DNA from: a virus
Strand: one strand, 5' to 3'
Virus genome (UHGV): UHGV-0189394
Length of the DNA stretch: 17,848 bases
Part shown: one piece after another, positions 1,422 to 17,848 of the stretch
Layout: each line of letters begins with the position of its first letter
How positions within the stretch are numbered: the stretch's first letter is position 1
Made by a program: the position numbers and the translations under genes
Notes under the pieces: generated by a model
The model's database searches: none
What the model saw: the letters and a program-made list of their open reading frames with translations, nothing else
What the model was told of the DNA's origin: nothing

Positions 1422-1427
1422 CGCCAT

Positions 1428-1456
1428 AAAAAAACCCTCCGCCATGCGGAGGGGAA
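1428..1456. terminator. A7 tract + perfect 8-bp GC-rich hairpin (ccctccgc-cat-gcggaggg); intrinsic-terminator-like, best oriented for the - strand
   Basis: Seen directly: aaaaaaa (1428-1434) then stem 1435-1442 / 1446-1453 with a 3-nt loop. On the - strand the hairpin is followed by U7; on the + strand it sits 14 nt after the esterase stop but lacks a U tract. Confidence 0.5.
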
Positions 1457-1537
1457 GAAGTTAACCATCAAACGAATATCTATGGAATTTGCATTCTGGC
1501 AATTTTCACCAATACACACAATGCAAAGGAGCGATGT

Positions 1538-1705
1538 ATGAATTTATTTCAACAGGTGATGTTGTATTTCAGTACTGCGGTATGCGTCCTCTGGTTGTTA
1601 TCCGGTGGCTACAAAGCCGTTAAAAACTTCTGGAACAAAAAACCAGACGAGGCCGCCGCCAGAAAGTCAGCATCAGGTTCAGGTGAAAGCAACTCGTTAA
1701 ACTGA
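1538..1705 (+). CDS. small hypothetical membrane protein (55 aa)
   Basis: ATG 1538 with AGGAG at 1526-1530 (7-nt spacing), stop TGA 1703-1705. Product MNLFQQVMLYFSTAVCVLWLLSGGYKAVKNFWNKKPDEAAARKSASGSGESNSLN has one N-terminal hydrophobic helix and a charged tail. Absent from the supplied track, presumably below its length cutoff. Confidence 0.4.
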   Translation: MNLFQQVMLYFSTAVCVLWLLSGGYKAVKNFWNKKPDEAAARKSASGSGESNSLN

Positions 1706-3829: not shown

Positions 3830-4712
3830 TTTATCTGAACTGCCAAAACCGAACGTTATCGAAACGCTGGATTACGAGGTGATACTGGCAGAAACAAAGG
3901 CATTTATCGTCAGCCTTTACCCGGCAGAGATACAGGAAGCCGTCACTGCCGCAATGATGCTGGAATCGGAACCCCTGAACATCATTGCCCAGAGCATGGC
4001 TTTCCGTGAGCTTATTATCCGTCAGAGAATTAACGACGCTGCGGGTGCCATTCTGCTGAGCCATGCGGTATCCACAGACCTGGATCATGTTGCCGCGAAC
4101 CTGAACACCGCTCGCCTGGTCATCACACCGGCAACAGAGACCAGTGATGCCGTTATGGAGAGCGACACCGCCCTGCGTCTTCGGGCGCAGTCTGCCTTTG
4201 ACGGGCTAAGTGTCGCCGGTCCAACAGGCGCATATGAATATTTTGCCCGAAGCGTCAGTGGCAGCATTGCCGACGTGAGGGCAACAAGCCCATCCCCAGC
4301 CCAGGTCACCGTGGCGGTATTATCCACAGAAGGCGACGGTACCGCTTCCGAAGACCTGATCGAAAAGGTCAGAACCGCACTGAGTGCGGAGGACGTCAGA
4401 CCAGTGGGAGACAGGCTTACCGTAAAGAGCGCTGAAATCATCAGCTATCAGATCGACGCCAGACTCTACTTTTATCCGGGCCCGGAATCCGAGCCCATTC
4501 TGAATGCAGCCAAAAGCAACCTGGAAGCGTGGATCAGAGAGCAGAGAAAAATTGGTCGCGATGTTGCGCTTTCCGCCATCATGGCCGTCCTGCATGTGCA
4601 GGGCGTTCAGCGGGTGGAGCTGGTGAAGCCACAACAGAACATTACCGTGAGCGATACGCAGTCGGCATATTGCACTTCATTCACCGTCAGCACCGGGGGA
4701 ACCAATGAATAA
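3816..4712 (+). CDS. J: baseplate assembly protein J
   Basis: 298-aa ORF, size and position match P2 gpJ (~302 aa); overlaps W by 14 nt and I by 8 nt. Confidence 0.85.
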   Translation: MPAIDLSELPKPNVIETLDYEVILAETKAFIVSLYPAEIQEAVTAAMMLESEPLNIIAQSMAFRELIIRQRINDAAGAILLSHAVSTDLDHVAANLNTARLVITPATETSDAVMESDTALRLRAQSAFDGLSVAGPTGAYEYFARSVSGSIADVRATSPSPAQVTVAVLSTEGDGTASEDLIEKVRTALSAEDVRPVGDRLTVKSAEIISYQIDARLYFYPGPESEPILNAAKSNLEAWIREQRKIGRDVALSAIMAVLHVQGVQRVELVKPQQNITVSDTQSAYCTSFTVSTGGTNE

Positions 4713-8942: not shown

Positions 8943-9416
8943 TTATCTTACCAGTGTCAGTGCAGAGCTGACGCCGGACTTGATATTATTTGTCAGATCC
9001 CCCAGAGATGAAGACTGAAGGCGCTCACGCAAATCTTCATTCACACGCTCAAAGGTCACCGTAAACTCAATCTTCCGGGCCTTGCCATAGCGATCAAGCT
9101 CTGAGCGCGTGGTATTCAGCGCGGTGATAACGTACATACCGTAAATCTGACCAACACCATCAATCAGCGGCCAGGGACGCCCCGCATACGCCTGAGTTGT
9201 CAGCGCCGTGAGCGAGACTTCACCGCCTGTTATTTCCGGGTAGAGAAGACCGGAAAGCGTGATGGTATCGTCCCCCGCACCGATATACTGCCAGCTTGCC
9301 GAGCGGTTGATCCGCTCGTTCTTCACATGACGCCAGTTACGGGACTGCTGTATCTGCTGGTGTGGCAGCGTGCTTAACTGAAAAACAAACATGCCGTAAA
9401 TCATCATCATAACCAT
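8943..9416 (-). CDS. U: tail protein U
   Basis: Product (..MMMIYGMFVFQLSTLPHQQ...WPLIDGVGQIYGMYVI...KIEFTVTFERV) resembles P2 gpU. The track ORF starts at GTG 9419; I place the start at ATG 9416, but ATGs at 9410-9404 are equally possible (AGGAG lies just upstream). Confidence 0.8.
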   Translation of the reverse strand: MVMMMIYGMFVFQLSTLPHQQIQQSRNWRHVKNERINRSASWQYIGAGDDTITLSGLLYPEITGGEVSLTALTTQAYAGRPWPLIDGVGQIYGMYVITALNTTRSELDRYGKARKIEFTVTFERVNEDLRERLQSSSLGDLTNNIKSGVSSALTLVR

Positions 9417-9421
9417 CACTC

Positions 9422-12307
9422 CTAATCACGATCGCGGAAGCTGTTCATACCGCCGACTTGTCTGCGAATTTCTTCCCGTACCGCCTCCCCCACCATTCTG
9501 GCAAGGTCGCGCGGATTCTGCGTAACCACGTTATGAAGGTGAACGTGAATTTCCCCATCAAACACAGGCGACGGCGCAGGAGCAGATGCACGCGATGCAG
9601 CACCCGATGATGGAGAAACCGGTGCCCACTGCTTAACCTCCACAGGACGGGAAGTATCCGGGGAAACAACCGGAGACACGGGTGAAAGCGCTGGCACAGG
9701 CGGAAGTACGGGGGCAACAGTCGGTTCATTCCACTGCCCACGAACGGCCAGCGCGCGGGGGAGATTTTTAAACACGATATCGCCGGGGCCGATACGCTTA
9801 CGGGCTTCCTGAAGCATACCCGACGTATTGCCTTCGATACCCTTGAGCCTGCGAAGAACGCCACTGGTACCGTCATTTATTCCCGGAGGATTACCACCTT
9901 TGGGATCCACGCCCCCCGTATTACCGCCAGCCACCGGTTTGCCCTTCCCTGCGTTATCACTGGTGGCAGATTCAGCCATACTGGGGGACCATGCCTTCTG
10001 AACCATTTTTTTCTGAACAGGGTCCCACTCCCACATAACCGGAGCCTTTGCAACTGCCTCAGCACGATTTTTCGCCCGCTCAACTTCAGAGGGGAGCACG
10101 CCGAGTTTTTCCAGCACCCATGCCAGGCCGTCCATCAGAGCCTGAAGAGGAGTAAGCGCAAGCGATATCGCCCCGCTGAGCACGCGACCAAAAGTTTCCC
10201 CGGCCGATGTACACCGTTCAAGAGATTCATTACTGGCCTGAACCGGCGTGAGCAACCGGGTAAACCAGTCGAACACCGTGGACACCGCACCCGATACCAG
10301 ATCAAACAGCGGCGCAAACTGAGCAATACTTTCACGAACAGGCGCAAGGCCAGCCCACAGCGCCCGGAATGTGCCGAGCATGAAGGCCTTAACCTGTTCC
10401 CAGTGACGCCATATGAGCAGCGCCCCACCGGCAAGGGCAGCAATCACGAGACCAACAGGACTGAGAAGACCGGCAAGCGCCCCGCCCAGCACCGAAAACG
10501 CACCGGATACCATCCCCCACAGTGCCGGAAGTCCGGACAGGCGAAGGACAAGACCACTGACGCCGGTTGCAACGGAGGAAAGTCCGCCACCAAGAAGCGC
10601 AGAGCCAAGCTGAAGTTTTGCAAAAACCCCCGTCAGCAATCCACCACCGACAGACAGCGCGCCTATGGCCGTTGTGGCCGCAAGCACGCCCCCCACGGTA
10701 AGGGTCAGTGTGCGTACAAGCTGTGGGTTTTCCTGAATCCACGACCTGAAACGTTCGCCCACAGAAGCAACAGCCTGTACAAGCTCGCGGATATCATCAG
10801 TAACCAGCGACACAACATCACTGCGTATACCGGAGAAGACGCCAGACAGACGATCGGCATCACCGCCGAGGTTATCCCGCAGGACATCCCCCATTCGCCG
10901 GGCGGTTCCCTGAACCTGTCCCATACGGTCTGATACCGTTGCCAGCGAGCGGAGAAAATCCGGGATCTGGTCAACGGCAAGATCTTCAATGGGTGTGCCG
11001 AACAGCGCTATCGCCGCATTAGCCCGTTCTGCCGGATCCTGAATCTTCAGCAGCCCGGCAGCCGTTCGCTGCATTGCCTCGCGTGCAGCTGCGCCTCCGC
11101 TGGCAATCGCTGACGACATTCTTTCAGCGTTAAGGCCAATCAGCTCATAGGCCTCAACGCTTGCTTTGGACATATCCGAGCCGCGAATACTGAATTCCTT
11201 GACGGCATCGCCGGTTTTATCCAGGGCGAATTTTCCCTGCTGTGCCATGCTGACAAGCAGCGTCATGGTTTCAGAGCCGGAAAGCCCCATATTGCGGAAG
11301 TGCGTGGAATACTCATGCAGAATTTCAGGAAGTTCAGCGCGCATTTCGGCAGACATTTTCTGCATCCCTGCCGCCATCAGGTCGACCGCCTCCCCGGCAT
11401 TTGCGGCAAGCCCGTTTTTCAGCATGATTCCGGCAGCCTGAACCTGTTCAGCCACACTACCGCCGGTGACCTGAGCAAGATCCAGCGCCTGACGTGTCAC
11501 CCGTTCGAGCTCTTCAGTCCCCACCGTACCCAGTGCGCCAAGCGTGCTTTGCGTCGCAGCTGCCGCCTCTGAAATCATTGCGATATCCGTTGCGACACCT
11601 GACGCCCGGATATTCTGAATCATCCGGCTGTAGCGCTGCCCGTCCTCCGCACTGCCGCCACTCTGTGCCGCAATAAGCGCGCCCTGCCGTTGCTCTTCAA
11701 CAACAGGCGCAACCGCATGTCCGGCGGCGTACAGACCAGCACTGCCCGCCGCCATGGCAACCGCTCCGCGCTGGCTGAGTTTACCGGCGATATCCTGAAC
11801 ACGATCGTAACGTTGCTGTGCCTGCGTGACGCGCGCAAGCTGAGCCTGCTGGCGTTCAAGCTGATCGTTGTATTCCTGCGTTCGCCTGATTGCTTCCTCC
11901 ACAGCGCGGTTACTTCCGTCAGCCCGTATGCCGTGAGCTTCCAGTTCGCGACCGGCCTCCCGTAATCGGGACTGGTGAAGGGAGTACACAGTATTAAGGC
12001 GCTCAACCTTTGCGGTCAGCGCCCTGAGAGTTTCCTGCTGCTTTTCCGTCAGTGCTGTGCCGGTGCGCTGTGCTTCCTGAAGGCGCTGAAGTCGCGCACG
12101 CGCATCATTCAGACTGTTTTCAGTCGAAGCGACCTGCTGACGGGCACGGGAAAACGCATCACTGCTTCGCTGGAGTGACTTAAGCGCGTTCTGTGTGGAC
12201 GAAAGGGATTCAGAAAGCGCGCCGGTCATTTCCCGGGCGCGCCTGACAGGTTGGGTGAGACGGTCGACCGCAGTGAGGGCTACACGTATCTGGAGATTAT
12301 TACTCAT
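9422..12307 (-). CDS. T: tail tape measure protein T
   Basis: Long ORF between E/E' and U with an Ala/Gly-rich hydrophobic central region typical of tape measure proteins. Start placed at ATG 12307-12305 (MSNNLQ...), which overlaps the E' stop; the track's GTG at 12361 would lie inside E'. Confidence 0.85.
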   Translation of the reverse strand: MSNNLQIRVALTAVDRLTQPVRRAREMTGALSESLSSTQNALKSLQRSSDAFSRARQQVASTENSLNDARARLQRLQEAQRTGTALTEKQQETLRALTAKVERLNTVYSLHQSRLREAGRELEAHGIRADGSNRAVEEAIRRTQEYNDQLERQQAQLARVTQAQQRYDRVQDIAGKLSQRGAVAMAAGSAGLYAAGHAVAPVVEEQRQGALIAAQSGGSAEDGQRYSRMIQNIRASGVATDIAMISEAAAATQSTLGALGTVGTEELERVTRQALDLAQVTGGSVAEQVQAAGIMLKNGLAANAGEAVDLMAAGMQKMSAEMRAELPEILHEYSTHFRNMGLSGSETMTLLVSMAQQGKFALDKTGDAVKEFSIRGSDMSKASVEAYELIGLNAERMSSAIASGGAAAREAMQRTAAGLLKIQDPAERANAAIALFGTPIEDLAVDQIPDFLRSLATVSDRMGQVQGTARRMGDVLRDNLGGDADRLSGVFSGIRSDVVSLVTDDIRELVQAVASVGERFRSWIQENPQLVRTLTLTVGGVLAATTAIGALSVGGGLLTGVFAKLQLGSALLGGGLSSVATGVSGLVLRLSGLPALWGMVSGAFSVLGGALAGLLSPVGLVIAALAGGALLIWRHWEQVKAFMLGTFRALWAGLAPVRESIAQFAPLFDLVSGAVSTVFDWFTRLLTPVQASNESLERCTSAGETFGRVLSGAISLALTPLQALMDGLAWVLEKLGVLPSEVERAKNRAEAVAKAPVMWEWDPVQKKMVQKAWSPSMAESATSDNAGKGKPVAGGNTGGVDPKGGNPPGINDGTSGVLRRLKGIEGNTSGMLQEARKRIGPGDIVFKNLPRALAVRGQWNEPTVAPVLPPVPALSPVSPVVSPDTSRPVEVKQWAPVSPSSGAASRASAPAPSPVFDGEIHVHLHNVVTQNPRDLARMVGEAVREEIRRQVGGMNSFRDRD

Positions 12308-12847
12308 CGTTATGATTCCCGGTTCTGGCAGCCGCCCGCTCTCGCCAGGCAACAACCTCACCAGGACTCATACCGAATATCTCTGCGGGCGACCAGTTAA
12401 AGACAACAGCGATATCAGCGACAAGCTCTTCGATATCGTCAAACAGGAGACGAATTACATCACACCTGTATTCGTCTTTTTCTTGCCGGGCAAGGCCTTC
12501 GGCGAGAAAAAATACGTTGCCGCCGTGGAAAGCGCCCCGAAATCCTCCGTGCGCATGGTCGACAGTTCCGCTTCAGTAAGGCGGGGCTCTGTAACACGAG
12601 CGAGATAAACGCACATCGCGTTAAAGTTCAGGCTGTACAGGTGAGCCAGAGACAGACCACGCAGCGAACCACTCTGACGGGCACGCTCGCCAATCTTCAC
12701 ATGTGTAATAATCTGTTCGCCACGGATGACCGGGTTTGTTAATTCAATGAGCTCACCGTTATAGGCAACCTCATTACCATCAGCAGCATCGAAGTCGTCG
12801 ACGTTATCAGCACCGACAACCGGCATTTCGTTTTGTTTTTTTGACAT
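12300..12847 (-). CDS. tail assembly chaperone E+E' (predicted -1 programmed frameshift product)
   Basis: Slippery heptamer T TTT TTC on the - strand (12512-12506) at codons 112-114 of E. Hand translation of the -1 frame from 12506 gives a 68-codon extension (LAEGLARQEKDEYRCDVIRLLFDDIEELVADIAVVFNWSPAEIFGMSPGEVVAWRERAAARTGNHNDE) ending TAA 12302-12300, overlapping the T start. Confidence 0.6.
12455..12847 (-). CDS. E: tail assembly chaperone E
   Basis: 130-aa ORF with AGGAG 9 nt upstream of ATG 12847; sits between FII and T as in P2 and contains a slippery run near its 3' end. Confidence 0.8.
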   Translation of the reverse strand: MSKKQNEMPVVGADNVDDFDAADGNEVAYNGELIELTNPVIRGEQIITHVKIGERARQSGSLRGLSLAHLYSLNFNAMCVYLARVTEPRLTEAELSTMRTEDFGALSTAATYFFSPKALPGKKKTNTGVM

Positions 12848-12892
12848 TGTGAAATTCTCCTGGCGGCCACACGACCGCCGTCAGTCAGTTAA

Positions 12893-13405
12893 TCAGCCAA
12901 GCCCCAGCATGGAGCGGGTGCGGTCAGGCAACACATCCTTGCCATCAACGCGCCAGATGAAGTTCAGCACGTCGATTTCAATAACATCGCTGTTATCAAC
13001 GCTGAGCTTGTACCAGGTGCATTTCATCGCGTAGGTATGTTCGGTATCCTCACCCTGTTTGGCTTCGCCCTTGTCGATTTCGACAATGCGCCCACGGGCT
13101 TCAATATCGACGTACTCAATACCCTCTTCGGAATAGTATTCACCCGAGAAGCGCACACGTACCGCATCAATGCCTGCGGCATATTTGGCAAAGATGTGAC
13201 GGTCCACGCCGCCAACCGCAAAGGAGAGATCCAGCGCACCGTCATCAAGCCCGAGATCCACCGCCGCAGAGCCTGGCATACCCGCACCGCGATACGCTTC
13301 AGTCTTGCGGGTCAGCTTGGGCGGAGTGAAGGAGGTCACCTTACCCAGCTTGTTGTCACCGTCCACAAAGACGGTAAACACACGAAGTTTTTTTGGCACG
13401 GCCAT
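12893..13405 (-). CDS. FII: tail tube protein FII
   Basis: 170-aa ORF (P2 FII ~172 aa); its start overlaps the FI stop (TGATG). Confidence 0.9.
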   Translation of the reverse strand: MAVPKKLRVFTVFVDGDNKLGKVTSFTPPKLTRKTEAYRGAGMPGSAAVDLGLDDGALDLSFAVGGVDRHIFAKYAAGIDAVRVRFSGEYYSEEGIEYVDIEARGRIVEIDKGEAKQGEDTEHTYAMKCTWYKLSVDNSDVIEIDVLNFIWRVDGKDVLPDRTRSMLGLG

Positions 13406-14610
13406 CAGTTACCCCCTCCCAGAGATGCAAAAGCAGAACTGAAGAACTCGTCAGTAAACGTCTGATAGAGTTCCATGCACTCCATAGGCGGAACAGGGGT
13501 GTATTTGTAGCGAATACGCACAATACCCTGACGAAGGCTGGTTGTGTCGTTGTCGATGATATCGAACCAGCATTCCGCCCCGATAAGTTTTCCGGCCGTG
13601 ACCAGCGCATCCAGTTTTGCCTTGATAGCGCTTACCGCATCCTTCGCGTTGGCTGGCGTCAACGGTGAATCCACCACCTGAAGCTGTGCCTCTGCGATAC
13701 CGTCAGCCAGTTGTTGCGCCGTACGGGTGTACACCTCAAAGATATACTCCGCCGTTTCCGGCGTACGGTTCCCCCAGAAACGGAAGGAGCCGTCACCCTG
13801 GTGAATAATCGTCGTCACCTCACTGCTGTTCAGCGTGTTGGCATCGCTGTTTTCATCCTGAAGCGACCAGGAAACCGACGCAGAGATCCCGAGAACATTC
13901 TTCACAGGGATGTTTGAAAGAGAGCGATGCCAGCCCTGTTCGTGGTCGATTCGGGCACGAAGACCGCACGCATACGCCGCAGCCGGGAAAGTTTCGCTTT
14001 TACCGGATGCAGGGTTGAACGCCGTGAAATCAGGCCACAGAAGCATGATTTCACGCCCGGAAATCTTTTTGCGGAATGCAATGGCATCGGACGGTTTTGT
14101 ACATGCCGGGCAGCCGGAATACGCAAAAGCGCGCATTTTGCCCGCAATCGTCACCAGTGCCGCCGTAACGGCCTCGGACTCAAGACCGGGTGCCGCCAGG
14201 ATACGCGGACGACAGCCAATCCCTTCCATCTGTTCAGCAACCAGAAGAGCCTGCATCCCCGTGTAACTGCCATCAGCCTCCACGGTACCAATAACAAGCT
14301 GGTCCTGATTCTTCCCTCCCTCGGTGTCTTCCTCCTCTTTGGCTTCAGCGACACGCACGACGATAACGCGCGTGCTGACCTGATCGGAGATAGCCTTAAG
14401 AGATTTGTAGAGCGTCCCCTTTGTGCCAGCCTTACCCAGAACATTATTGACTCGTGTTAACAGCACCGGCGTGTCAAGCGGGAACTGCTCTTCATCAGCA
14501 TCATCTGCAACAGCAATAATCCCAATGACACTGGAATCAACGTCATTAATTGCCGTCACCAGATCGGTGTTTTCCCTGACGCGCACACCGTGAAATCGCG
14601 TTTCAGCCAT
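13405..14610 (-). CDS. FI: contractile tail sheath protein FI
   Basis: ~400-aa ORF resembling P2 gpFI. Start placed at ATG 14610 (MAETRFHGVRV..., GGTGA 5 nt upstream) rather than the track's ATG 14622, which has no RBS. Confidence 0.9.
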   Translation of the reverse strand: MAETRFHGVRVRENTDLVTAINDVDSSVIGIIAVADDADEEQFPLDTPVLLTRVNNVLGKAGTKGTLYKSLKAISDQVSTRVIVVRVAEAKEEEDTEGGKNQDQLVIGTVEADGSYTGMQALLVAEQMEGIGCRPRILAAPGLESEAVTAALVTIAGKMRAFAYSGCPACTKPSDAIAFRKKISGREIMLLWPDFTAFNPASGKSETFPAAAYACGLRARIDHEQGWHRSLSNIPVKNVLGISASVSWSLQDENSDANTLNSSEVTTIIHQGDGSFRFWGNRTPETAEYIFEVYTRTAQQLADGIAEAQLQVVDSPLTPANAKDAVSAIKAKLDALVTAGKLIGAECWFDIIDNDTTSLRQGIVRIRYKYTPVPPMECMELYQTFTDEFFSSAFASLGGGN

Positions 14611-14685
14611 ACGATTCACCATCAGTTATGTTTAAGCTCGCCTGAATAATCCACTACTGGCGCGCAGCCTTCACGTGATGCGGGT

Positions 14686-15909: not shown

Positions 15910-15950
15910 AATGAGCGCGAGCCCACCCCGTTTCAGCCAGGGGGACCATC

Positions 15951-16253
15951 ATGCATCCTTGCCCATACTGCGGAGCAAGCACCCGCACCAGAACAAGCCG
16001 CAACGCCAACGACACAGGAACAATCAGGGAGAAATACTATCAGTGCAACAACATTGAATGCAGCGCAACCTTTGTGACTCACGAGTTTGTCGTGAGAACC
16101 GTATGCCGTCCGCAACCCACCGAAGAACGGGGAATTATTCCCGCAGACGCCTTCAAAGCATGTCACCGGGGGAGGGATCAACTCAGCCTTCCCCTGGGCG
16201 ATTGCGCCTCCCAGTCAAAAACTGTACATTACGCGCGGGTGCCTTTCGGCTGA
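15951..16253 (+). CDS. ogr: Ogr/Delta-family zinc-finger late transcription activator
   Basis: N-terminus MHPCPYCGASTRTRTSRNANDTGTIREKYYQCNNIECSATF has the C-x2-C...C-x4-C arrangement and surrounding residues of P2 Ogr; GGGGGA RBS upstream. The 100-aa ORF is longer than P2 Ogr (72 aa). Confidence 0.8.
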   Translation: MHPCPYCGASTRTRTSRNANDTGTIREKYYQCNNIECSATFVTHEFVVRTVCRPQPTEERGIIPADAFKACHRGRDQLSLPLGDCASQSKTVHYARVPFG

Positions 16254-16382
16254 CGGCTGGAAGGATTACCTGAAGGCCGGATGTGGAAAGGCCCCGAGTC
16301 AACTAAACGTTAACCCGAGGCCCTAACCATCTACCATAAGCAAGTGATAGGTTAGCGCCTCTCCAACAAAGGAGCAAGCGCT

Positions 16383-16523
16383 ATGTCGCAAAAATCGCTT
16401 ATGGCCATCACGTTCTGCGTGACGGCAATCCTCATCATCTGGATGTTACATGGTTCGCTGTGTGAAATACGGATGAACATATGGGGAGCGGAGTTTGCGG
16501 CGTTCCTACAGTGTAAACAGTAA
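16383..16523 (+). CDS. Hok/Gef-family type I toxin-like small membrane protein (46 aa)
   Basis: ATG 16383 with AGGAG 9 nt upstream, stop TAA 16521-16523. Product MSQKSLMAITFCVTAILIIWMLHGSLCEIRMNIWGAEFAAFLQCKQ has one TM helix followed by SLCEIR and a later AAF block, matching the Hok family signature as I recall it (R1 Hok ...SLCEIR...VAAFMAYE). Confidence 0.55.
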   Translation: MSQKSLMAITFCVTAILIIWMLHGSLCEIRMNIWGAEFAAFLQCKQ

Positions 16524-16616
16524 GGAAACCGCGACGGGGGAGTAATCCCCCGTCAATCGGTTGCCAGGGTAAAGCCGAAAGTAGCACCCTCACACGCAAG
16601 TCACAAAGAAAAACAA

Positions 16617-16647
16617 AGCCCGCAGCGTAAAAACTGCGGGCTTTTTT
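16617..16647 (+). terminator. rho-independent terminator
   Basis: AGCCCGCAG-cgtaaaaa-CTGCGGGCT followed by TTTTTT, ~95 nt downstream of the hok-like ORF. Confidence 0.75.
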
Positions 16648-16852
16648 GTATTCACATTTCGAAGATGTGGTCACTGCGTGGACACAGAGCGATGAAAATC
16701 CTTTCAAATCACAATGTTAACTAATTTTTTTCATTCATCAACAAGGATTTTCACGTTTGTGTTACCTGTATGAGACGAGAGTTAACCGGACAAGTGTGCC
16801 ATAATCTCGCGGCCAGGCATACTTGCGAAGATTTCAGGTATAAGGATACGTA

Positions 16853-17848
16853 ATGATACAACCTATTTCCGGCCCTCCTCCTGGGCAACCACCAGGTCAG
16901 GGAGATAACCTGCCGTCTGGCGCGGGCAATCAGCCTTTATCCAGTCAGCAACGTACTTCGCTGGAAAGCTTAATGACGAAAGTGACCTCACTGACGCAAC
17001 AACAAAGAGCAGAACTGTGGGCGGGTATCAGGCACGATATTGGTCTGTCGGGAGATTCACCGCTGCTTTCGCGTCACTTCCCTGCCGCTGAGCATAATCT
17101 GGCGCAACGTCTGCTGGCCGCGCAAAAAAGCCATTCTGCCCGCCAGCTTTTAGCGCAATTAGGGGAGTATTTACGTCTGGGGAATAATCGTCAGGCGGTC
17201 ACGGATTATATCCGTCATAACTTTGGTCAGACGCCGCTGAATCAGCTCTCACCGGAGCAATTAAAAACCATTCTCACCCTGTTGCAGGAAGGGAAGATGG
17301 TTATTCCGCAACCACAGCAGCGCGAGGCGACCGACCGTCCTTTATTACCGGCGGAGCACAATGCGCTAAAACAGCTGGTGACCAAACTTGCGGCGGCAAC
17401 GGGGGAACCCAGCAAACAGATCTGGCAATCGATGCTGGAACTTTCCGGGGTGAAAGATGGCGAGTTAATTCCAGCGAAACTGTTTAACCATCTGGTGACC
17501 TGGTTGCAGGCGCGCCAGACGTTAAGCCAGCAAAATACGCCGACGCTGGAATCACTACAGATGGCGCTAAAACAACCTTTAGATGCCAGTGAACTGGCGG
17601 CGTTATCGGCATATATCCAGCAAAAATATGGCCTTTCTGCGCAATCATCGCTTTCTTCTGCCCAGGCCGAGGATATTCTTAATCAGCTTTATCAACGGCG
17701 GGTTAAAGGGATTGATCCGCGTGATATGCAACCGCTGCTTAATCCTTTTCCACCGATGATGGACACGTTGCAAAATATGGCAACGCGTCCCGCGCTGTGG
17801 ATACTGTTAGTCGCGATTATCCTGATGCTGGTCTGGCTGGTTCGTTAG
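16853..17848 (+). CDS. flk: flagellar regulator Flk-like protein (host chromosomal gene)
   Basis: 331-aa ORF with TAAGGA RBS; Pro/Gln-rich N-terminus (MIQPISGPPPGQPPGQ...) and a single C-terminal transmembrane anchor (ALWILLVAIILMLVWLVR), matching enterobacterial Flk as I recall it. Complete gene, stop TAG 17846-17848. Confidence 0.7.
   Translation: MIQPISGPPPGQPPGQGDNLPSGAGNQPLSSQQRTSLESLMTKVTSLTQQQRAELWAGIRHDIGLSGDSPLLSRHFPAAEHNLAQRLLAAQKSHSARQLLAQLGEYLRLGNNRQAVTDYIRHNFGQTPLNQLSPEQLKTILTLLQEGKMVIPQPQQREATDRPLLPAEHNALKQLVTKLAAATGEPSKQIWQSMLELSGVKDGELIPAKLFNHLVTWLQARQTLSQQNTPTLESLQMALKQPLDASELAALSAYIQQKYGLSAQSSLSSAQAEDILNQLYQRRVKGIDPRDMQPLLNPFPPMMDTLQNMATRPALWILLVAIILMLVWLVR

Follow-up and report, generated by a model that had tools for sequence, protein, structure and literature searches.

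A DUF1378 family gene encoding a predicted single-pass inner-membrane protein behind a NanS-p-type esterase gene in a P2-like prophage

The gene order in lambdoid and Stx phages is stx, esterase (NanS-p), DUF1378, DUF826, pinholin S, R, and Rz. DUF1378 is already known as a gene family in Pfam and PHROGs. Functional data on the family were not found in the literature, and the one passing mention places DUF1378 between nanS-p and S as a functionally uncharacterized region annotated as coding (PMC10462455). In stx2a-positive STEC, nanS-p mRNA increases by 1–2.4 logs (10- to 250-fold) after mitomycin C, which is thought to be Q-dependent (PMC10462455). The esterase–holin interval is also a prophage sRNA hot spot, containing the PasA and PasC sRNAs (10.64898/2026.05.13.724894) and convergent sRNA pairs (PMC4104026). 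In the RefSeq record of phage 933W (locus L001, 4501–4993), the DUF1378 ORF at 25261–25419 is unannotated, and a 148-aa CDS, ST933Wp43 (25307–25753), overlaps it in another frame. A DUF826-type frame in 933W has its own ATG 42 nt after the DUF1378 stop codon, and the annotated start of ST933Wp43 is therefore probably too far upstream.

The window analyzed here (the whole 17,848-nt stretch of UHGV virus genome UHGV-0189394) contains a DUF1378 family gene at 1538–1705 on the plus strand, as indicated by PF07125, PHROG 494, dN/dS, transmembrane (TM) and charge analysis, and AF2. The ATG is located at 1538 and the TGA at 1703–1705, and the product has 55 amino-acid residues (MNLFQQVMLYFSTAVCVLWLLSGGYKAVKNFWNKKPDEAAARKSASGSGESNSLN). 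Direct reading of the sequence reveals a Shine–Dalgarno element, AAAGGAG, at 1525–1531 (plus strand), 6 nt upstream of the ATG. Its assignment is supported by the invariance of AAAGGAGC in four P2-like copies, including the 73%-identical NCTC9112 variant. A six-codon upstream ORF at 1521–1541 (ATG CAA AGG AGC GAT GTA TGA) encloses the Shine–Dalgarno element, and its TGA overlaps the DUF1378 ATG (ATGA), which could represent either coupling or coincidence. The original prediction of a 55-aa ORF between the esterase gene and R, with a good ribosome-binding site, a single N-terminal hydrophobic helix, and a Lys/Ser-rich tail, is borne out in each of these respects. The ORF is missing from the supplied ORF track, which its length of 55 aa, below the 60-aa default of the ORF lister, would explain. 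Taken as a whole, it is nearly certain that 1538–1705 is a genuine DUF1378 gene, that its product is a 55-aa single-pass inner-membrane protein, and that it is phage cargo behind a NanS-p-type esterase gene.

Residues 3–21 of the 55-aa protein are hydrophobic, with a Kyte–Doolittle mean of 1.72 over 19 residues. The flank preceding this helix consists of two uncharged residues, and four Lys or Arg residues are present within the 15 residues on its C-terminal side; the tail composition includes 5 Lys, 1 Arg, and 6 Ser. The hydrophobic segment occupies residues 3–21 in all 32 DUF1378 members tested, each of which has 0–1 Lys or Arg before the helix and 3–5 in the 15 residues after it. By the positive-inside rule, the basic flank of a membrane helix is cytoplasmic. 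Because of this rule and the Lys/Arg asymmetry, a single TM helix with N-out/C-in topology is predicted: the two-residue N-terminus should face the periplasm, and the basic juxtamembrane helix and the variable tail should face the cytoplasm.

The AF2 model, based on the 32-sequence alignment, has one continuous helix at residues 3–47 and a disordered end (mean pLDDT 66, and 84 at residues 11–20). The protein can be divided into a TM helix (residues ~3–21), an SGGY-K/R juxtamembrane motif, a basic helix extending to about residue 44, and a variable Ser/Gly-rich tail. The motif of the basic juxtamembrane helix in the family is SGGYKxhRNh..KxDxAAxxK, and the conserved core consists of M1, L9, (Y10), F11, V15, L18, L20, (S22), G23, G24, Y25, (R29), D37, A40, and K43. 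Beyond about residue 44, neither the length nor the composition of the tail is constant among members. The sole Cys, C16, lies outside any lipobox (T-A-V-C), is Ser in the NCTC9112 variant, and has no counterpart in the copy of Stenotrophomonas phage BUCT709, which contains no Cys. An amphipathic helix at residues 25–44 was considered and rejected; the hydrophobic moment of this segment is no higher than that of shuffled sequences.

The protein scores 63.4 bits for PF07125 (DUF1378), for which the cut-off is 25 (E = 2.1e-17; residues 1–49 of 55), and also matches PHROG 494, with E = 1.9e-20. The original prediction had called it an orphan with no recognizable resemblance to P2 lysis proteins or spanins. 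The first part of that description does not stand, as the protein is a clear member of DUF1378/PHROG 494 and homology searches led to 309 phage records and 348 protein clusters; the second part stands, for P2 lysis proteins, holins, and spanins alike. Membership is indicated by the HMM score, by the combination of a length of ~50–70 aa with a TM helix and the family motifs, and by the context 3′ of a SASA/DUF6645 esterase gene. The window protein agrees with the 32-sequence alignment at each of its 12 invariant columns but departs at four of the eight nearly invariant (≥90%) ones (F3L, Y19W, I36P, E42R), and it forms a divergent branch, 47–65% identical to the other subfamilies.

Homologs were found by tblastn in 309 phage records, nearly all Stx-converting, at 53–62% identity, including the 933W copy at 25261–25419. 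A word-indexed protein search gave four matches, and a profile search was needed to reach the 348 clusters (at 90% identity). Nearly all of the named proteins among the clusters listed are "DUF1378 family protein," mostly from E. coli and Shigella and some from Citrobacter. An exhaustive HMMER search of 1.8 billion representatives gave ~8 true clusters at 50% identity, and the family is therefore compact; clusters P0005 and P0008 of the same search were discarded as repeat or low-complexity false positives. The identical 55-aa sequence has been recorded by NCBI PGAP as "DUF1378 family protein [Escherichia coli]" on 68 contigs, and a gene look-up gave six places, each in a P2-like prophage of a draft E. 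coli genome. Because the identical protein sits in public databases under the family name, the gene is rated as already known. Window DNA from 1400 to 1800 had no match by megablast in complete E. coli genomes or by blastn in phages, and the protein had none in NCBIfam, PADLOC (E up to 0.1), or PDB sequences. The peptide sequence is absent from the supplements of the Sakai ribosome-profiling paper.

The first 4 kb of the window contain 47 ORFs of at least 30 aa, so a length of 55 codons is not significant by itself. The significance of the ORF derives instead from the Pfam match, the intact orthologs, and dN/dS. Each of the 91 loci first collected has an intact ORF starting with ATG. Among all pairs whose dS exceeds 0.05, dN/dS has a median of 0.17 in frame, as against 1.6 and 1.9 in the shifted frames, and dN/dS is 0.09 relative to the 73%-identical E. 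coli variant. Relative to the Stx-phage copies, pS is ~0.85–1.0 (saturated) and pN is ~0.26. Synonymous saturation, the low pN, and the lack of a blastn match in phages together indicate conservation of the protein, not of the DNA, and these sequence comparisons place the DUF1378 gene under purifying selection. The situation that the original prediction named as contrary to a gene, conservation of the nucleotide sequence alone, is thus not what is seen.

Upstream, at 45–1421 on the plus strand, lies the 3′ portion of a gene for a NanS-p-type sialate O-acetylesterase (SASA PF03629, DUF6645 PF20350; PHROG 143, E = 1e-154). In sister prophages the full-length esterase has 642 aa (DUF1737, SASA, and DUF6645), and the whole gene is seen in locus L004. 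The gene downstream, at 1784–2254 on the plus strand, encodes the P2 gpR tail completion protein (PF06891, E = 3.8e-40) and begins 78 nt past the DUF1378 stop codon. This 78-nt spacer contains a hairpin, GACCGGC-N10-GCCGGTC, at 1731–1754, with no T-run on either strand. The remainder of the window, a P2-like tail region, comprises S, V, W, J, I, H, a tail-fiber assembly-like gene, U, T, FII, FI, D, and Ogr. In P2, these genes are generally described as running in one direction. In the window, the minus strand carries a tail block at 8943–14622 (U, tape measure, (E), tube FII, sheath FI), which is thus inverted with respect to R-S-V-W-J-I-H on its left and to D and Ogr on its right, all on the plus strand.

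Sister loci encoding the identical protein extend this order. Their 5′ part has Q, P, O, N, M, L, and X, then a 96-aa holin candidate, a 179-aa PF00959 lysozyme with an N-terminus resembling a signal-arrest-release (SAR) sequence, a 147-aa i-spanin, and an overlapping LysC-like lipoprotein ORF; their 3′ part has the 642-aa esterase, DUF1378, and then R, S, V, W, J, I, H onwards. Locus L004 has extra cargo at 16214–17818, a minus-strand methyltransferase gene and a hexapeptide-repeat acetyltransferase gene flanking a partial tail-fiber-assembly gene, and locus L006 has a gene for a YadA-anchor protein at 15928–16806, after the tail-fiber genes; the window has neither. A second P2-like type has the order esterase, DUF1378 (47% identical), and gpR. 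In Mu-like prophages, esterase, DUF1378, and DUF826 are located at the right end, between the tail-fiber genes and com/mom, ~23 kb from the lysozyme, Rz, and LysC genes.

The association with the esterase gene is close. In 70 of 72 distinct DUF1378 neighborhoods, the sequence encoding an esterase C-terminus lies 68–173 nt upstream (median 149), and the pairing holds in three backbones (lambdoid/Stx, P2-like, and Mu-like). The two exceptions are a Cedecea neteri Mu-like prophage with the order tail fiber, DUF1378, and Dam-like methylase, and phage BUCT709, in which DUF1378 comes after a SAR-type lysozyme gene and an i-spanin-like gene, its start overlapping the stop codon of the latter. Many esterase genes lack DUF1378, and the link is therefore one-way. 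Among loci picked by the esterase and having enough downstream sequence, DUF1378 is absent from most; these loci belong to another P2-like type, in which gpR starts 27 nt past the esterase stop codon. The 447-nt esterase–holin interval of Stx1 phage YYZ-2008 contains sRNA-like units only.

Loss and exchange of the gene can both be seen. In a prophage of E. coli MSB1_4I that is close to that of the window (L091, 4926–5071), DUF1378 is a pseudogene encoding MNLFQQSMLYFSAAVCVIWV followed by a stop (after 20 codons), with further deletions of 12 nt, 1 nt, and ~31 nt, and the upstream gene for a 645-aa esterase is intact. In lambdoid locus L048 (~4500–4650), a window-type esterase 3′ end and hairpin, with nearly identical DNA, are joined to lambdoid-type DUF1378, DUF826, and holin S at a point ~35 nt before the DUF1378 ATG. 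This mosaic points to a recent exchange of DNA between prophages of the P2-like and lambdoid kinds. In addition, one and the same intergenic region is found joined to several different esterase 3′ ends. The esterase genes without DUF1378, the MSB1_4I pseudogene, and the joints between the two genes indicate that DUF1378 is dispensable and not needed by the esterase. An obligate partnership was rejected, as each gene is found without the other.

The interval between the two genes contains a GC-rich hairpin, CCCTCCGC-ATG-GCGGAGGG, followed by T7, which a terminator scan identified as an intrinsic terminator on the minus strand (1427–1453). Viewed on the plus strand, the hairpin (1435–1453) is preceded by an A-run but not followed by a T-run, and without a U-tract it should not stop read-through from the esterase gene into DUF1378. 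The same hairpin architecture, with different stems, is present in 38 of 48 upstream variants; none of the 48 has a plus-strand terminator between esterase and DUF1378, and two have a plus-strand promoter-like site. The promoter scan of the window found none on the plus strand upstream of DUF1378, and that of the Mu-like cassette was uninformative. From the lack of a plus-strand promoter or terminator, we infer that the esterase gene and DUF1378 are co-transcribed; in lambdoid and P2-like backbones, the transcript would be that of the late operon.

On the minus strand, a promoter-like sequence, TTGCCA-16-GATATT (1502 to 1475), and the terminator (1453 to 1427) together form an sRNA-like unit at window positions 1427–1502, with a predicted RNA of ~40–45 nt. 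The unit overlaps neither the DUF1378 ORF nor its ribosome-binding site and points away from the gene. Similar units with unrelated stems (TTGACA, 17–18 nt, TAAAAA or TAGAAA) occur in lambdoid, Mu-like (L096, ~3845–3985), and second-type P2-like (L093, ~3857–3985) contexts, and a promoter-like site and terminator in the correct order are found in 34 of the 48 upstream variants. In lambdoid loci, a distance of 18 nt separates the DUF1378 ATG from the beginning of the −35 element of the unit, which is on the opposite strand, and the terminator follows ~72 nt further on. Units without DUF1378 occur in YYZ-2008, and DUF1378 without units occurs in L003, L010, and the NCTC9112 type. The interval had no Rfam match at the gathering threshold in the window and four related loci; an OmrA-B match was rejected as sub-threshold (21.9 bits against a gathering threshold of 40) and was probably driven by the terminator hairpin.

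These features suggest a tentative model of a late lysis accessory. DUF1378 would be co-transcribed late with the esterase gene, and its product would insert into the inner membrane shortly before lysis. Through its TM helix and juxtamembrane helix, the protein would then modulate the holin/SAR-endolysin step without being essential to it. It would change when, or how efficiently, the membrane is depolarized and the endolysin released, and hence the release of the cytoplasmic esterase. Because a membrane protein made late cannot act after lysis, a role in the inner membrane during the last phase of infection is the simplest reading. The statement as a whole, identity and mechanism taken together, is put forward tentatively, and the mechanism itself, a late-expressed modulator of lysis, is possible though doubtful.

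The genomic context favors a late-expressed accessory over a core lysis component. DUF1378 adjoins the lysis cassette in three of five contexts, the lambdoid and P2-like ones among them, it overlaps the i-spanin-like gene of the lysis cluster in BUCT709, and a PF00959 lysozyme with a SAR-like N-terminus is present in every DUF1378-positive backbone checked (933W R, the window-type P2-like prophage, BUCT709, and the Mu-like prophage). The P2-like type that has the esterase but lacks DUF1378 encodes a 130-aa endolysin without a SAR-like N-terminus, which on reading by eye appears to be a soluble M15-like peptidase. The loci compared were L004 (6861–7397), L146 (28239–28739), L003 (2926–3462), and L112 (2066–2458), and the association with SAR endolysins rests on about five backbones that are not independent. 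Several observations run counter to a lysis role. The Mu-like cassette is far (~23 kb) from the lysis genes and beside com/mom, and the phage of the window already has a complete set of holin, endolysin, and spanins. In sister prophages whose lysis proteins are ~90% identical (L121), only a degraded DUF1378 is left, a clear pseudogene in the case of MSB1_4I, and SAR-endolysin phages without DUF1378 exist, such as YYZ-2008.

More specific lysis functions were considered and rejected. A core role does not agree with the MSB1_4I pseudogene or with the complete lysis cassette already present in the phage of the window. Pinholins and holins of classes I and II have at least two TM segments, whereas T4-type holins combine a single TM segment with a large periplasmic domain. 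DUF1378 has one TM segment and a two-residue N-terminus, unlike a holin or pinholin, and a separate 96-aa holin candidate is present in the sister loci. It is likewise no o-spanin (Rz1/LysC), as it has no lipobox Cys, and a LysC-like ORF with an LLSAC lipobox lies upstream. The 32 members had no match to holin, antiholin, or spanin families at E values up to 10.

DUF1378 might instead serve the esterase, as a membrane anchor or export helper whose cytoplasmic helix would bind the signal-less NanS-p esterase (or DUF826) and keep it at, or bring it to, the membrane. Such a function, which we consider quite unlikely, would agree with the pairing in 70 of 72 neighborhoods across lambdoid, P2-like, and Mu-like backbones despite synonymous saturation; by organism category, moreover, the 309 phage records with DUF1378 look like a subset of the 347 with the esterase. 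Eight of the 32 members have weak, sub-threshold matches to OAD_gamma, a bitopic anchor subunit. Like DUF1378, the oxaloacetate decarboxylase gamma chain (PF04277) has an N-terminal TM anchor and a cytoplasmic, Ala-rich flexible segment, but the matches (best E = 0.0018) are below the Pfam threshold, the window protein itself is not matched, and the likeness probably reflects composition, not homology. A partnership is difficult to reconcile with the frequent occurrence of the esterase without DUF1378 (P2-like type 2, YYZ-2008), with DUF1378 lacking an esterase in the Cedecea Mu-like prophage and BUCT709, with the pseudogene beside the intact 645-aa esterase gene in MSB1_4I, and with the recombination joints between the genes (L048 and the several esterase 3′ ends).

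The sites occupied by DUF1378 are typical of cargo (the 3′ side of stx/nanS-p, the junction of lysis and tail genes in P2-like prophages, and the right end of Mu-like ones, by com/mom and a Dam-like methylase gene), and its distribution is patchy, with easy loss. A lysogenic-conversion moron would fit this pattern: the prophage would make a small inner-membrane protein that either shuts out superinfecting phages or modulates a membrane protein of the host. AcrZ, MgtS, and Sie-type proteins are analogs for such a function. It is nevertheless unlikely, given that no plus-strand promoter was found upstream, that PADLOC gave no match to a defense family at E values up to 0.1, and that orientation and position imply expression from the late operon, nanS-p being strongly induction-dependent. 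The small size, N-terminal TM helix, and charged tail would also suit a type I toxin-like peptide, in which a membrane-damaging protein is checked by the apparent opposite-strand sRNA just upstream; the minus-strand promoter-like and terminator unit recurs directly upstream in lambdoid, Mu-like, and two P2-like contexts in diverged form. In type I systems, the small hydrophobic toxin has its own promoter, and an antisense RNA pairs with the toxin mRNA. The RNA unit seen here is clear of the ORF and its ribosome-binding site, units and gene occur without each other (YYZ-2008 on the one hand; L003, L010, and the NCTC9112 type on the other), and DUF1378 lacks its own promoter. Strong conservation of the cytoplasmic motif speaks for a specific partner and against unspecific damage to the membrane. 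A toxin-like peptide is considered very unlikely.

As a discovery the gene adds little that is new, and the gain is a sharper description of an uncharacterized family present in hundreds of Stx-phage genomes. Modest new leads come from the synteny across three unrelated backbones and from a possible link with SAR endolysins, and hypotheses follow on lysis timing and on esterase or toxin release in EHEC prophages. In a bolder form, which we regard as very unlikely, DUF1378 would be an unrecognized class of accessory factor specific to SAR-endolysin phages, either a releasin/antiholin-like timer or a membrane partner of NanS-p, and its expression might be tied to the divergent sRNA gene. If true, this would bear on toxin and esterase release, because in most Stx phages DUF1378 has stx/nanS-p on one side and the lysis genes on the other.

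For a late lysis modulator, the closest known systems are functional analogs. Mu releasin gp25, T4 antiholin RI, and P2 LysA are small membrane proteins made late that tune the holin or SAR endolysin and are dispensable for the lytic machinery. The likeness of DUF1378 to such small bitopic lysis regulators (gp25, RI, and LysA) is one of function only, by analogy, and Pfam searches detected no sequence similarity to holin, antiholin, or spanin families. A periplasmic domain is present in RI, and LysA spans the membrane with four TM segments, whereas DUF1378 is predicted to have a two-residue periplasmic end and a cytoplasmic tail.

Among DUF1378 relatives, the 933W ORF (25261–25419) and WP_001537165.1 of E. 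coli NCTC9112 share with the window copy a length of 50–70 aa, an N-terminal TM helix, a position after a SASA/DUF6645 esterase gene, and the invariant L9, F11, V15, L18, L20, G23-G24-Y25, D37, A40, and K43. The window copy differs from its relatives in having Pro36 (Ile in ≥90%), Trp19 in place of Tyr, and Arg42 in place of Glu. It lies in a P2-like late operon with no DUF826 gene on its 3′ side, rather than upstream of a pinholin S gene. Compared with the NanS-p/933Wp42 cassette of Stx phages, the window has no stx, Q, or DUF826, and the pair is placed after LysB/LysC and before R in a P2-like prophage; the window and the cassette have in common the esterase–DUF1378 pair and the A-run hairpin between the two genes.
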